Source: an uncultured Alphaproteobacteria bacterium (lineage in GTDB: Bacteria; Pseudomonadota; Alphaproteobacteria; Sphingomonadales; Sphingomonadaceae). From it: a DNA stretch of 64,000 bases. The notes below the pieces were generated by a model. The model searched no databases and was not told the DNA's origin. It saw only the letters and a program-made list of their open reading frames with translations. The stretch is from the NCBI GenBank assembly GCA_963701615.1, contig OY969615.1, forward strand, positions 3,212,525 to 3,276,524, read 5' to 3'. How positions within the stretch are numbered: the first letter of the stretch is position 1; each line of letters opens with the position of its first letter. Both the position numbers and the translations under genes were made by a program. Below are positions 9,110-40,629 of this stretch, one piece after another.

Positions 9110-10267
9110 CTAGCCCATTCGCTGCAGCCGCTCAATCCGCGGCCAGTCGCGCGCGAACTCCTCCACCGGGCGGCCGAGCAAGGCGGCGACGATTCGCTCG
9201 CTGGCGCGGCCGTCGCCGTAGATCTGGGACGGCCGGTTCGACGCCGGCGCGTCGAGCTGCGCTTCGGCGGCGCCCAGGATGCGCTCGGCATCGGTGCCGA
9301 CGAGGATCGCCGCGCCGGCGGCGACCCCCTCGGGCCGCTCGGTGACGTCGCGCATCACCAGCACCGGCTTGCCGAGCGCGGCCGCCTCCTCCTGGACCCC
9401 GCCCGAATCGGTGAGGATCAGGTGCGCGCGCTGCATCAGGCCGACGAAGCATGGCAGGTCGAGCGGCGGCAGCAGGTGGACGTGGTCGAGGCCGCCGAGC
9501 GCCGCTTCGGCCGGCGGGCGAAGCTCGGGATTGGGGTGGAGCGGGAACAGGATTTCGACGTCGGGGCGCTCCGCCAGCCGCGCCAGCGCACCGCAAATCG
9601 CGCCGAACGGGGCGCCGAAGCTCTCGCGGCGATGGGCGGTGACGGCGATCAGCTTCCGGCCTTCGGGAATTATCGGCAGCGCGGCGTCGACGCGCCACCA
9701 CAAAGCCGCATCGGCCTCGAGCCGGGCGAGCACCATGTCGAGCGCGTCCATGCCGCTATTGCCGGTGACGAACACGTCGCCGCGCAGCTGCTCGGCGACG
9801 AGATTGTCGCGCGCGGCGCGGGTCGGCGCGAAATGGAGGTCGGCGATCAGGCCGATCGCGCGCCGGTTATACTCCTCCGGGAAGGGCCGGTCGGCGCAAT
9901 AGGTCCTGAGGCCGGCCTCGACATGGGCGACGGGGATGCCGCGATGGAAGGCGGCGAGCGCGGCGGCCAGCGCCGAGCTGGTGTCGCCCTGGACGATCAC
10001 CCGGTCGGGCGCGGCTTCGGCGAGGACCGGATCGAGGCGCTCGACGAGGCGCGCCACCAGCGGGTTGAGCGCCTGGTCCGCGGCCATCAGGTCGAGATCG
10101 AAATCCGGCTCGATCGCGAAGAAATCGAGGACCCGGTCAAGCAAATCGCGGTGCTGGCCCGTTACGCACACCCGCACTTCAATAGCGGGCTCGCTTTTTA
10201 GGGTCCTGAGGATGGGGGCCAACTTGACAGCTTCGGGACGCGTACCAAAAACGAACAGCAGTTTCAT
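9110..10267 (-). CDS. wecB: UDP-N-acetylglucosamine 2-epimerase (non-hydrolysing)
   Basis: FGTRPEAVK, TGQH, VQGDT, HVEAGLR, HRRE, TDSGGVQEEA motifs. Confidence 0.95.
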   Translation of the reverse strand: MKLLFVFGTRPEAVKLAPILRTLKSEPAIEVRVCVTGQHRDLLDRVLDFFAIEPDFDLDLMAADQALNPLVARLVERLDPVLAEAAPDRVIVQGDTSSALAAALAAFHRGIPVAHVEAGLRTYCADRPFPEEYNRRAIGLIADLHFAPTRAARDNLVAEQLRGDVFVTGNSGMDALDMVLARLEADAALWWRVDAALPIIPEGRKLIAVTAHRRESFGAPFGAICGALARLAERPDVEILFPLHPNPELRPPAEAALGGLDHVHLLPPLDLPCFVGLMQRAHLILTDSGGVQEEAAALGKPVLVMRDVTERPEGVAAGAAILVGTDAERILGAAEAQLDAPASNRPSQIYGDGRASERIVAALLGRPVEEFARDWPRIERLQRMG

Positions 10268-10798: not shown

Positions 10799-11527
10799 GT
10801 GACCGACGAGGATCTGGCCGCTCACCTGGCGGAGGAAGCCGGGCGCCTGCTGCTGGAGCAGCGCGGCAGCGCCCTGCTCGAGGGCGCGGCGCTCGGCCAC
10901 GTCGCCGATCAGGTCGCCAATGCCTTCATCCTCACCGGCCTCGCCGAATGGCGGCCGGGCGACGCGGTGCTTTCGGAGGAGAGCCCCGACGATCCGGCGC
11001 GGCTCGGCGCCAGCCGGGTGTGGATCATCGACCCGCTCGACGGCACCCGCGAATATTCGGAACGGCGGCCCGACTGGGCGGTGCATGTCGCGCTGGCGGT
11101 GGACGGGGTGCCGCGGCTCGGCGCGGTCGCCGTGCCCGCTTTGGGCCGGCTGTTCCGCTCGGACCGGGTCGCATCGCCGCCGGCCCGGCGCAAGCGCCCG
11201 ATCATGCTGGTCAGCCGGACCCGGCCGCCCGCGGAGGTGGAGGAGATCGCCGCTTTGCTGGGCGCGGAGCTGATCGCGATGGGCTCGGCCGGCGCCAAGG
11301 CGATGGCGATCGTGGCCGGCGAGGCGGACATCTATTACCATGCCGGCGGCCAGCACGAATGGGACAATTGCGCGCCGGCCGTGATCGCGCTGGCGGCGGG
11401 CCTGCACGCCAGCCGCCTCAGCGGGGCGCCGCTCGTCTACAACCGCGCCGACACGCGCATGCCCGATCTGGTCATCGCCCGGCCGGAATTCGCGGCGCGG
11501 ATCCTCGATGCCTGCGCTCAGAGATAG
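10799..11527 (+). CDS. cysQ: 3'(2'),5'-bisphosphate nucleotidase / inositol monophosphatase family
   Basis: LSEE, WIIDPLDGTREY, GSAGAK, WDNCAP motifs; GTG start after GAGGG. Confidence 0.85.
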   Translation: MTDEDLAAHLAEEAGRLLLEQRGSALLEGAALGHVADQVANAFILTGLAEWRPGDAVLSEESPDDPARLGASRVWIIDPLDGTREYSERRPDWAVHVALAVDGVPRLGAVAVPALGRLFRSDRVASPPARRKRPIMLVSRTRPPAEVEEIAALLGAELIAMGSAGAKAMAIVAGEADIYYHAGGQHEWDNCAPAVIALAAGLHASRLSGAPLVYNRADTRMPDLVIARPEFAARILDACAQR

Positions 11528-34030: not shown

Positions 34031-34499
34031 ATGGCCTACAGGATCGAGGGACTGGCGCCGGACGAATTCGCCGGCTTGTTCGCAATGGACGGCGCGGCGC
34101 TCGCCGCCCGCAATGCCTTGCGGGTGACGGCGGATTCGCCGTCGGGCTTTCCGTGCCGCGTCACGCTGGAGGATGCCGCGCCGGGCGAGGAGCTGGTGCT
34201 CCTCAACTACGTCTCGCACGATGTGGCGGGGCCGTTCCGCACCGCCTACGGCATCTATGTCCGCAAAGGCGCGGACGCGGCGGCGCGCTATGTGGACGAG
34301 GCGCCGCCGCTGCTCGAACTCGCGGACGCTCGGCCTGCGCGGGTTCGACGCCCGGGGCATGCTGCGCGGCGCCCTGCTCGCCTTGCCGGGCGAGGCCGAC
34401 GCCCGCATCCGCGAGCTGTTCGCACGGCCCGACATCGCCACCATCCACGCGCACAATGCGGCCCATGGCTGCTTCCTGGCGCGAATCGAAAGGAATTGA
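34031..34499 (+). pseudogene. DUF1203 family gene with an apparent single frameshift near 34315
   Basis: Frame 1 gives PCRVTLEDA..GE...LLNY; the C-terminal half (LRGFDARGML...IHAHNAAHGCF) is in the 34173..34499 frame. Confidence 0.75.
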
Positions 34500-38819: not shown

Positions 38820-39129
38820 GGTCCCAGCATCGTCGCCGCCTTTCTATGGGCGGGCGGGAGCGGCGGCAAGCGGGCGATGGCGGGGCGGGGCCGGCAGGGC
38901 GAGGGGACAAGCCGGCAAATAGTTCCGCAATGCAACTTACATTTTCTTCGCCCGGTGAAAGTCTCGCCCGAGTCCCGCGAAATCGTTCGTCGCCGTATCA
39001 ATGTCCAAATACCGTAAAATCACGAATTGACTCGGTTTCACATCCAATGATGAATTGCCCTCGCCTGTTGCACGCTTTGCAACGAGTCGGCGCCTTCTGT
39101 GCGGGGGCAAAGCGAAGAGGGGGAATGAC

Positions 39130-40186
39130 ATGACTTTCGAAACGTTCGACACCGTTTTGCTCGTGCCGTGCGAGAGCTTTCCGGCGACGCTGCTCGGGGC
39201 GGGCACGATGCCGGAGGGCGACGCGCCCGGGGCCGGGACGCTTGAGGCCGCGCTGCGCCAGGCCGGCGAGGCCGGGCGCGGGGCGGAGCTTCCGGCTCCG
39301 GGCGCGGATGATGTGCCGGGCCGCCGCGCGGCGCGGGCGGAGGCCTTGGTCCTCGATTTTGTGGATCGAGCCGAGCGGCGGTAATCTGCGCGCGTTCGAC
39401 GAAGCGGAGCAGGCGCGCTGGGTCGGAGGCGGCTGGCTGATCGAGCCGGAGGACGGCGCGGGCTGGAAGCTCGGGCCCGAAGCCGGTGCGACTGCGCAGG
39501 GCGCGAAACCAGCGACACCGGGCACGATCTTCGACGACGTGGACAACGACGGCGTGGAAGACGAGCCCATCCCGGTCAACGGCTGGCGGCCGAGGAGCAT
39601 GGATGATGATTCCAGCTGGGGCATCCCCAGCGGCGAACCCGACAACGGCCCTAGCGGAGCGGTGGGAGGCCCGAGCGGCGGCGGTGCGTCCAACCAGCAG
39701 AAGGAGGACGCGGACGACACGCCCTGCGTGGATCAAGTGCCCGCCGGTGCCGATCTCGACGAGATCAACGACCTGGCCAAATTCATGGGTACGAAGCTCG
39801 GCGGCTTTCAGGACGCCACTGGCTGGGAATGGGGCGCATTCATCTATCGGGCGGCTAATGGTCAGCTCTATCAATCGGATCCCTTTACGGCCCAACATCA
39901 TGACGATTTGATCGGAGCCTCTATCCATCTCCCGCCCGGCGCGCATATCGTAGGGTATATCCACACCCATCCGATCAACGACGAGGCCGACCAAAGAATG
40001 CTATCCGAGGAGGACCGCGACTTCATCAATGACCTGGTGGGTAGAACGGGCAGCGTCACAGCCGACACCAACCTGCTTGCTTACGTCACGACAAAGGACA
40101 AAGACTTAGGTTATTCCGATGCTTATTCGACTTTCGTGTATGATAAGTCGAACCGGGATGCCGTCACCAAGGGATGTGACCTGTGA
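39130..40186 (+). CDS. toxin-like protein with C-terminal JAB/MPN-type domain; 5' part split over two frames (39130-39384 and ...-40186)
   Basis: WEWGAFIY, GYIHTHP, LSEED = E...HxH...SxxD; Gly/Pro/Asp linker; strong RBS only before 39130. Confidence 0.65.
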
Positions 40187-40629
40187 TTGGAATTATTGCT
40201 GTTGCCCTGTCTTTGTTGTCTCAGCCCTCGGCGACCGTCTCGATCAGGGTTCACGGGCGGGAGATGATCGGGCTCCGCGACAGGGAGGACGTCATTCGGG
40301 GAACCTGTGACGGGCGGCCAGCATCGGCGACGATCACCAAGGCTTATCGCGGCCGGACGGGCCGATTGGTGCTTCGCTCGGGGCGGTGGGCCCGGGAAGT
40401 GCCGCCGGCATTCGTCAACGGGCAACTCCTTCAGCACAGTCTGAATGCTGCGGGACTTGCCTGCGATGGGCGAAGACTCCAGTTGCGGGCGTTGGTTGTT
40501 CGAGCGGACGAGCGGGGTGAGATCGTTATGGATATCCAGAACGTCACCATGGATCTTCGCACCGGCGCCGTTTCCCTGAGCGAGATGAGAACCCTGAGCC
40601 CCGGCGAGACAAGGTCTGAGCTTCGCTAG
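40183..40629 (+). CDS. secreted hypothetical protein, translationally coupled (candidate immunity/partner)
   Basis: GTGA overlap with the upstream stop; MIGIIAVALSLLSQPSA signal-like; two Cys. Confidence 0.7.
   Translation: MIGIIAVALSLLSQPSATVSIRVHGREMIGLRDREDVIRGTCDGRPASATITKAYRGRTGRLVLRSGRWAREVPPAFVNGQLLQHSLNAAGLACDGRRLQLRALVVRADERGEIVMDIQNVTMDLRTGAVSLSEMRTLSPGETRSELR

Follow-up and report, generated by a model that had tools for sequence, protein, structure and literature searches.

What is encoded at positions 39130-40629 of the 64-kb stretch of sphingomonad DNA analyzed here (the window; C1:3212525-3276524 of a single-contig, 3.48-Mb genome, probably of an Allosphingosinicella, with a guanine-plus-cytosine (GC) content of 68.9%), and how would its product leave the cell? 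A first-pass annotation made from the letters alone had proposed a toxin with a JAB-type C-terminal domain (the tip), coupled to a secreted immunity partner. Our analysis leads us to conclude, with a probability of roughly 0.65, that these positions hold an orphan toxin-immunity cassette from a polymorphic system with ties to type I secretion. Among its relatives the window copy stands apart: it has no detectable double-glycine (GG) cleavage motif, 1.87 Mb separate it from the only bacteriocin-type peptidase-containing ATP-binding cassette transporter (PCAT) of the genome, and one surplus T interrupts the toxin gene. Comparison loci and proteins are cited below by L and P numbers.

The split gene and its predicted JAB tip

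The argument depends on the following features of the locus.

39116..39124, + strand: Shine-Dalgarno-like AGAGGGGGA, 5 nt 5' of the ATG at 39130, read directly
39130..39357, + strand: N-terminal domain (N-domain) MTFETFD…GTLEAALRQ…AARAEALVLD, frame 1, of leader or pre-leader type, matched by a hidden Markov model (HMM)
39357..39360, + strand: run of four T with one surplus T, splitting the toxin gene, from DNA alignment and three-frame translation
39359..39688, + strand: middle region LWIEPSGG…, frame 2, with an acidic loop, IPVNGWRP and a Gly/Ser/Pro linker
39533-39565, + strand: the acidic DxDxDG-like loop DDVDNDGVEDE, from the sequence read
39629-39688, + strand: the Gly/Ser/Pro linker, following IPVNGWRP, from the sequence read
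39689..40186, + strand: predicted Tox-JAB-2/DUF4329-like JAB domain, 165 aa plus stop, from profiles, AlphaFold2 (AF2) and Foldseek
40183..40629, + strand: partner (immunity-like) gene, 148 aa, with a GTG start within a GTGA overlap

The toxin had been described as one gene; however, 39130-40186 is not a single open reading frame (ORF), and the earlier reading had passed through a frameshift. The frame that opens with MTFETFD at ATG 39130 reads MTFETFDTVLLVPCESFP…GTLEAALRQAGEAG…AARAEALVLDFVDRAERR, ending in the tail ALVLDFVDRAERR before a TAA at 39382-39384. The JAB-bearing frame is +1 to it; this ORF (39242..40186, with a TTG at 39359) reads …ILWIEPSGGNLRAF…GCDL and ends at 40186. DNA alignment with L010 and L028 reveals exactly one T too many in the window run GATTTTGTGG at 39357-39360, where the window has ctcgaTTTTgtgg and both homologues have ctcga-TTTgtgg. 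The nearest homologue, P0109 from L010 (74% identical), runs …AARADALVLDLWVE… in a single frame at that point, and removing the surplus T from the window gives …ALVLD-LWIE…, the same as in the two homologues. The original start of the toxin gene at 39130 is supported by AGAGGGGGA. The first gene would originally have encoded about 350 aa, comprising the N-domain, a DxDxDG-type loop, the Gly/Ser/Pro linker and a JAB domain of about 150 aa.

The break in the window is recent, whether it is an inactivation or an assembly indel; the toxin gene may be a pseudogene or carry an assembly error. A programmed +1 ribosomal frameshift at 39357-39360 might be suspected from a T run within a coding region and a GGAGG 13 nt upstream. 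We rejected it as extremely improbable, because the DNA alignment shows TTT and an uninterrupted frame at this point in the two nearest homologues, whose own breaks lie elsewhere. Moreover, the site contains no stop or rare codon, and the intact P0001, P0002, P0004, P0008, P0028 and P0029 need no such shift.

It is quite possible, though we lean against it, that the window toxin gene is a genuine pseudogene, leaving the partner alone functional as orphan immunity against the toxins of relatives. This would be in keeping with the surplus T that splits the gene, with the frameshifts at other positions in the N-domains of L010 and L028, whose partner genes are intact, and with the lack of a canonical GG leader or a nearby exporter. 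Against it, the tip has kept every catalytic and structural residue, and the ratio of nonsynonymous to synonymous divergence (dN/dS) from L010 is 0.07 in the tip and 0.33 in the N-domain (0.36 in the middle region and 0.22 in the partner). Furthermore, the L010 assembly has many split genes, and the window's own assembly looks prone to indels, as suggested by the 91% completeness of a contig that is nevertheless closed and by a frameshifted DUF1203-family gene nearby, the one such case among 11 other genes common to the window and the syntenic short-read contig L011. Elsewhere in the genome, virB4-like ORFs are broken into three, and a duplicate of an immunity-like gene is likewise split. Whether or not the window copy is a pseudogene bears on the state of that copy, not on the nature of the family. 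The DUF1203-family gene (34031-34496), compared with its L011 orthologue, has residues 1-93 and residues 95-153 in successive frames, and the switch, near 34315-34320, lies outside any homopolymer. No metagenome contig matched an exact-pattern search for the T3/T4 junction, and a promoter and terminator scan of the locus found nothing beyond shuffle expectation.

A drop in GC toward the C-terminal domain, remarked on in the first-pass annotation, is borne out: GC is 0.726 over 39130-39688 and 0.56 over 39689-40186, compared with 0.689 for the genome. An equivalent fall occurs in seven homologous loci with a long N-domain, and no comparable fall occurs in the operon-form loci L014 and L017. Synonymous divergence (dS) from L010 is also a mosaic, at about 0.48 for the N-domain and middle region and 1.4-1.8 for both tip and partner, a pattern consistent either with independent histories through cassette exchange or with strong constraint on third-position GC in the GC-rich part.

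What kind of domain is the tip? All of the motifs previously read in this protein are present, namely DDVDNDGVEDE, the linker, DTPCV (39716-39730), WEWG (39824-39835), HTHP (39962-39973) and SEED (40004-40015). An exhaustive HMMER search retrieved about 107 representative relatives, nearly all of them 200-345 aa long. In a 28-sequence alignment E157, G168, H202, H204, P205, S216, D219 and Y242 are invariant, and in a 99-sequence alignment the metal-site residues, like the Cys of DTPC, are either invariant or shared by at least 90% of the sequences. E157 falls within WEWG, H202 and H204 at 39962-39970, and S216 and D219 within 40004-40015. Cys123 is the Cys of DTPC and Cys273 (within 40172-40183, in PGC.L) lies four residues from the C-terminus; a disulfide between the two probably staples the tip.

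In Pfam the window tip matches DUF4329 alone (scores of 18.7 and 20.3 bits, the latter with E=5.4e-4); among 99 members, 40 match DUF4329 (E<=0.01, best 4.6e-8), 7 match Prok-JAB and 2 match Toxin-JAB1. The best PDB sequence match of the family profile is AfJAMM, aligned over lP.G..v.G.vHsHP…pSe.D, and NCBIfam and direct PDB sequence searches with the window proteins gave no match. An AF2 model of the tip is confident (pLDDT 95.7, pTM 0.91). Its top PDB match by Foldseek is the bacterial JAB deubiquitinase 8tyx_B, and further PDB neighbors are cytidine deaminases, BRCC36, STAMBPL1 and a chain of the 26S proteasome; the best E value among all of these is 0.017. Matches in the viral database BFVD bear JAB, RadC, MPN, metalloprotease or deubiquitinase names (probability up to 1.0, best E=0.0035), and JAB/RadC/MPN proteins predominate among the named matches in the top ranks. 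In this structural comparison the best neighbors are JAB, MPN, RadC and cytidine deaminase proteins, but at E values of 0.0035 or more and TM-scores of 0.3-0.5.

Tox-JAB-2, which equals DUF4329, has the signature 'E, H[ST]H, S, D' (Zhang et al., 2012; PMC3482391). The tip motif equals this signature, and the agreement of three independent, individually weak lines leads us to assign the tip, on profile and model evidence, to the JAB superfamily as a predicted divergent sister group of Tox-JAB-2/DUF4329 rather than a core member. The JAB-type domain proposed earlier thus finds support in the conserved E…HxHP…S..D and in the DUF4329 and AfJAMM profile matches. The protein would be a metal-dependent hydrolase with E157, H202, H204 and D219 as ligands.

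The partner gene and the exchange of tips

The overlap of the two genes at GTGA (40183-40186), as first noted, is confirmed: the partner ORF 40183-40629 begins with a GTG that overlaps the toxin TGA, and AAGGGA stands 8 nt upstream. The partner has 27 homologues of 122-164 aa, several on contigs with toxin homologues and none with a Pfam domain. It lies directly 3' of the toxin, mostly with a 4-nt overlap, in L010, L011, L014, L015, L017, L029, L031 and L033; in L011 it is not annotated but is present at 10987-11439. Indeed, wherever the gene following this JAB tip can be read, it is the 148-aa partner.

An alignment of 30 partner homologues has about 12 hydrophobic N-terminal residues followed by Q-P in every sequence, and two conserved Cys (in GTCDG and L.CDG), Cys42 (40306) and Cys94 (40462). 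The signal peptide claimed for the partner stands to the extent that the N-terminus is hydrophobic and conserved, but it is short, about 12 residues, and has no basic n-region. Export to the periplasm is, on this evidence, plausible. The AF2 model of the partner is beta-rich (pLDDT 84) and has no significant neighbor in the PDB, the best being avidin-like (E ~0.02, TM 0.27). Assignment of the partner to Imm-NTF2-2, of NTF2 fold, was dropped for want of a structural or other tie. From its position and conservation, we read the downstream gene as encoding a putative cognate immunity protein, translationally coupled to the toxin; the exported partner would block the enzyme in the periplasm or envelope.

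Evidence that tip and partner travel together comes from the same chromosomal site in related genomes. L011 shares the gene neighborhood of the window (ATP synthase genes, a trypsin-like protease, PriA and transaldolase) and carries the toxin, its partner (partner A) and the 165-aa P0118, an orphan homologue of a second partner, B. L028 also has the protease gene upstream, at the same site. Its toxin, P0116, is about 70% identical to the window protein across the initial ~110 residues of the frame-2 product. Beyond these the similarity breaks down, as the tip is a different JAB variant; the partner gene after it encodes a 160-aa homologue of P0118. Partner A occurs with tip A in nine loci and partner B with tip B in L028. 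These alignments imply that tip and partner have been exchanged together at the window's site and that L011 keeps an orphan partner B. The downstream gene does behave as a cognate partner, as had been supposed, since it follows the toxin in eight other loci and is swapped along with the tip. L011 also has an extra 158-aa gene (9310-9786) between protease and toxin that is not in the window, and, between PriA and transaldolase, two jacalin-domain genes and small ORFs with no window match.

A second case is found in the same genome. The N-domain HMM identified a paralogue of 395 aa at C1:869364-870551, which reads MSIEGLDAALPIE…TLDDALK…DLWIE…ILRELSLAEKKLVAGG and has a canonical GG leader, LRELSLAEKKLVAGG. 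Its tip is unrelated, non-JAB and without a Pfam match. On the 3' side lie two signal-like ORFs (241 and 211 aa), a second, frameshifted copy of the shorter one, and genes for Fic, Ku and LigD. L035 has the same neighbors as the paralogue (aminotransferase, AsnC, …, Fic, Ku, LigD) and there an N-domain (50% identical) with a GG leader is joined to a JAB tip and followed by other small Cys-pair partners. The paralogue and P0028 are 50% identical in the N-region and have unrelated tips. We conclude from these comparisons that the constant part recombines with different tips at two fixed loci; the swapped tip suggested at the outset is supported by N-region homologues with other C-termini, both P0116 in L028 and the paralogue. 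The paralogue tip contains LHDLAHV; its locus (C1:869364-874565; L018 3365-8566) is syntenic with L035 and L036, which have a JAB-type tip there.

Could the pair instead have a role that has nothing to do with conflict? A secreted or periplasmic housekeeping JAB peptidase, serving envelope remodeling or peptide maturation with an inhibitor or chaperone as partner, seems to us rather unlikely. In its favor, the toxin role is deduced from sequence comparison, the position between housekeeping genes is conserved in at least three genomes, and the PCAT of this genome lies beside a peptide resembling ribosomally synthesized and post-translationally modified peptides (RiPPs) and a JmjC enzyme. The distribution is patchy, however: the tip occurs in 1 of 60 relatives, and none of 400 other genomes of the family has a convincing N-domain. 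In addition, one tip-partner pair has taken the place of another at a single site, there are orphan partner genes and tandem partner duplicates, and GC is low relative to the genome. Patchiness, joint exchange of tip and partner, orphan or tandem partners and low GC are hallmarks of conflict systems (PMC3482391). A related-locus search with tight alignment retrieved two loci, both from Allosphingosinicella metagenome-assembled genomes.

Where would such a toxin act? We consider it quite unlikely that it works in the cytoplasm, with the JAB domain acting like the nuclease RadC once imported by the target cell, even though toxin JAB clades have been argued to lack the tunnel for a ubiquitin-like (Ubl) tail and possibly to be nucleases (Zhang et al., 2012; PMC3482391) and RadC-like proteins are among the structural neighbors. 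Export-type N-termini and Cys pairs characterize the partner families, the conserved terminal Cys pair of the tip suits an oxidizing compartment, and the protein is small, with no recognizable translocation domain. These same features lead us to favor an enzyme that would act outside the cytoplasm, in the envelope or periplasm of competitors. Its activity would most likely be that of a peptidase or isopeptidase on envelope links, which is our preferred guess, with nuclease activity as the main alternative.

N-terminal domains, leaders and the export route

The N-domain of the window protein, about 75 aa long, belongs to a family of ~75-130 aa with the consensus 'MTFEGFDA…TLDAALR…DLW'. An HMM built from 12 homologues matches the window ORF at 39130 with E=6e-10 and 8.4e-22. 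No Pfam or NCBIfam family matches the N-terminal region of the window protein. Across 400 other Sphingomonadaceae genomes the N-domain HMM gave no convincing match and two marginal ones (E ~1e-3), and a word-index search with the N-domain of the paralogue returned only itself.

The relatives fall into several N-terminal classes: about 26 have a plain GG leader, about 15 begin with MTFEGFDA, and others begin with MCGDLxDPNNP or MSDWMFDDGSA. The GG leader consensus in the 26 is M-R-x-L-T-x-x-E-L-x-L-V-A-G-G, and from these leaders we built a position-specific scoring matrix (PSSM). It picks out strong GG leaders inside P0008 (43 bits), the paralogue (33), P0028 (25), P0068 (21) and P0058 (19), in each case C-terminal to the N-domain; the internal leader of P0008 also weakly matches the CTB bacteriocin leader model. 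About half of the N-domain proteins, the window's included, are without a GG site, and these GG-less proteins carry …[GA][GA]K…AFDD(V/I)DGDGxEDxPIxVxGxRP at the leader position. The window's DDVDNDGVEDE fits the DxDxDG calcium-loop pattern, and D[VI]DGDGxED is kept only in the GG-less N-domain proteins. The conserved [GA][GA]-K ahead of this loop is a candidate site at which N-domain forms might be cut. As a cryptic GG leader following a TTG 39359 start, LRAFDEAEQARWVGG was rejected, its score being insignificant and the motif not conserved in L010 (AESG).

The gene order around the relatives points to an export route. L014, L015 and L017 each have an operon of membrane fusion protein (MFP), Fic, toxin, partner and Peptidase_C39-ABC exporter, which is partial in L002 and L030; linkage to the C39-peptidase exporter itself is present in L014, L015, L017 and L030. 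All of the longer loci with a short leader contain a PCAT. Within the 64-kb window there is no C39-peptidase exporter or MFP. The genome does have one bacteriocin-type PCAT with an MFP, at C1:1381794-1383929 (C39 E=1.9e-34), which is 47% identical to the operon PCAT and lies about 1.87 Mb from the window; it also has an HlyB-like transporter beside an RTX protein. In the proposed mechanism a bacteriocin-type type I system, made up of PCAT and MFP, would export family members and remove their leader. Judged by these gene neighborhoods, type I export is well supported for the family and plausible, in trans, for the paralogue. The N-domain loci have no PCAT in their available flanks, and for the window copy and its subclade the route is therefore extrapolated. 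Delivery by a type VI secretion system (T6SS) was rejected: the genome has no VipB/TssC match, and the N-terminal region has no Pfam match.

These results divide the earlier suggestion that the delivery route might be uncharacterized. It does not hold for the relatives, which have GG leaders in operons of C39-peptidase ABC exporter and MFP, but the caution stands for the window subclade, in which no GG motif is recognizable and no exporter occurs in the window.

Two further observations concern these neighborhoods. The PCAT and MFP of the window's genome lie in what looks like a small, RiPP-like cluster (C1:1380195-1385086; L019 6196-11087). Next to them come an ORF of 47 aa, whose GG-type leader reads …LLPEQALERVAGG|ASDYVMPRPDDP, and then a JmjC/cupin protein of 422 aa; the cluster adjoins type IV secretion system genes, including the virB4-like ORFs in three pieces. 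A Fic-domain protein with intact HPFxDGNGRTAR is a near-constant neighbor of the toxin gene, sometimes with DUF6932 (L014 9132-10001; L017; L029 1682-2488; L030, in three copies; L035 5738-6547; C1:872793-873686); it might serve as an accessory, as a regulator or as part of a separate toxin-antitoxin module.

Several points weigh against the conclusion that the locus is a toxin-immunity cassette tied to type I export. The toxin gene is frameshifted in the window, and the N-domain is broken elsewhere in L010, by one shift, and in L028, by two. The best PSSM score in the window protein is 1.3 bits (at LRAFDEAEQARWVGG), a value equalled by 25% of shuffles; its closest relatives P0109, P0116, P0002 and P0003, as well as P0005 and P0079, likewise have no significant GG leader by PSSM, and no PCAT is present in the available flanks of any of the 10 N-domain loci. 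As for the tip, its DUF4329 score of 20.3 bits is below the Pfam gathering cut-off of 28.6, and Foldseek finds no match at E<=0.001, with TM-scores of 0.3-0.5. The partner has an N-terminus without a basic n-region and a fold without a known match. Toxicity and neutralization are both deduced by comparing sequences, and for toxin JAB domains Zhang et al. (2012; PMC3482391) proposed a nuclease, not a peptidase.

Beyond the locus itself, we put forward a wider proposal that is tentative and, in our estimate, somewhat short of an even chance. Sphingomonads and mainly metagenomic relatives may possess an undescribed class of polymorphic toxins, defined by a type I exporter, a GG leader or the new N-domain as a trafficking or pro-domain, exchangeable tips that include periplasmic JAB hydrolases, exported disulfide-bonded immunity proteins and a Fic accessory. 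Within it, the GG-less subclade would use the N-domain for some other step of export or activation. What the window itself contributes is more modest: its cassette is an orphan that may be decaying, and the assembly around it shows several frameshifts.

Comparison with known systems

JAB tips and polymorphic toxins are already known. Tips of the Tox-JAB-2/DUF4329 type are widespread on Rhs and T6SS effectors, and in the literature we found their prediction as RNases or nucleases is purely bioinformatic. The survey of 2012 lists no type I or PCAT route for Tox-JAB-2 (PMC3482391). The family described here resembles the Tox-JAB-2/DUF4329 (PF14220) tips of Rhs, T6SS and type VII secretion system toxins in its catalytic signature, in its predicted deaminase/JAB-like alpha+beta fold, and in having a C-terminal tip on a modular protein, exchanged between proteins and followed by a tip-specific partner gene. 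It differs in its sub-cut-off Pfam score and its extra conserved Cys pair; in its carrier, which is a 15-aa GG leader or an N-domain of ~75-130 aa and not RHS, PAAR, LXG or WXG; in the size of the whole protein, just 200-345 aa; and in a partner that is beta-rich, of exported type and without significant match to solved structures.

Double-glycine-leader bacteriocins and class II microcins are exported by C39-peptidase ABC transporters together with an MFP, as in the ColV/CvaAB and ComA types. About 26 members of the present family resemble them, with M-R-x-L-x-x-x-E-L-x-x-V-x-G-G and an operon of PCAT, MFP and immunity-like gene. They depart from that model in carrying a folded enzyme domain of 150 aa, where the bacteriocins are small peptides that form pores or bind receptors. 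Their operon also always includes a Fic gene, and the window copy has neither GG motif nor linked exporter. Long-leader PCAT substrates, the NHLP and Nif11-type precursors, were reportedly described by Haft in 2010. As in those precursors, a sizeable N-domain precedes the GG site in the paralogue, P0008, P0028, P0058 and P0068. Unlike them, the N-domain has no sequence similarity to these families in NCBIfam, the cargo is an enzyme tip and not a modified peptide, and half of the N-domain proteins have no GG site.

The tip has its metal-site motif and predicted core fold in common with JAMM/MPN+ isopeptidases such as AfJAMM, Rpn11, BRCC36 and the deubiquitinase of the Bil system, which are its best profile and structure neighbors, although the matches are weak (E ~0.02, TM 0.3-0.4), the protein is predicted to be secreted with a disulfide, and the locus has no Ubl partner. 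In the literature searched, no enzyme-tipped polymorphic toxin is described that uses a GG/PCAT type I route, an archaeal island of GG leaders being a loose precedent only (PMC6393860), and no substrate or site of action is reported for JAB toxin tips. The PCAT context of an enzyme tip, the N-domain, the exported partner family and the constant Fic thus appear undescribed there. A stand-alone JAB domain of about 150 aa, with a confident model, a predicted exported partner and a simple leader, would be an easy system in which to find toxin targets. Overall, compared with these systems, the family would add the PCAT type I pathway to the export routes of modular polymorphic toxins and define an N-domain common to different tips.

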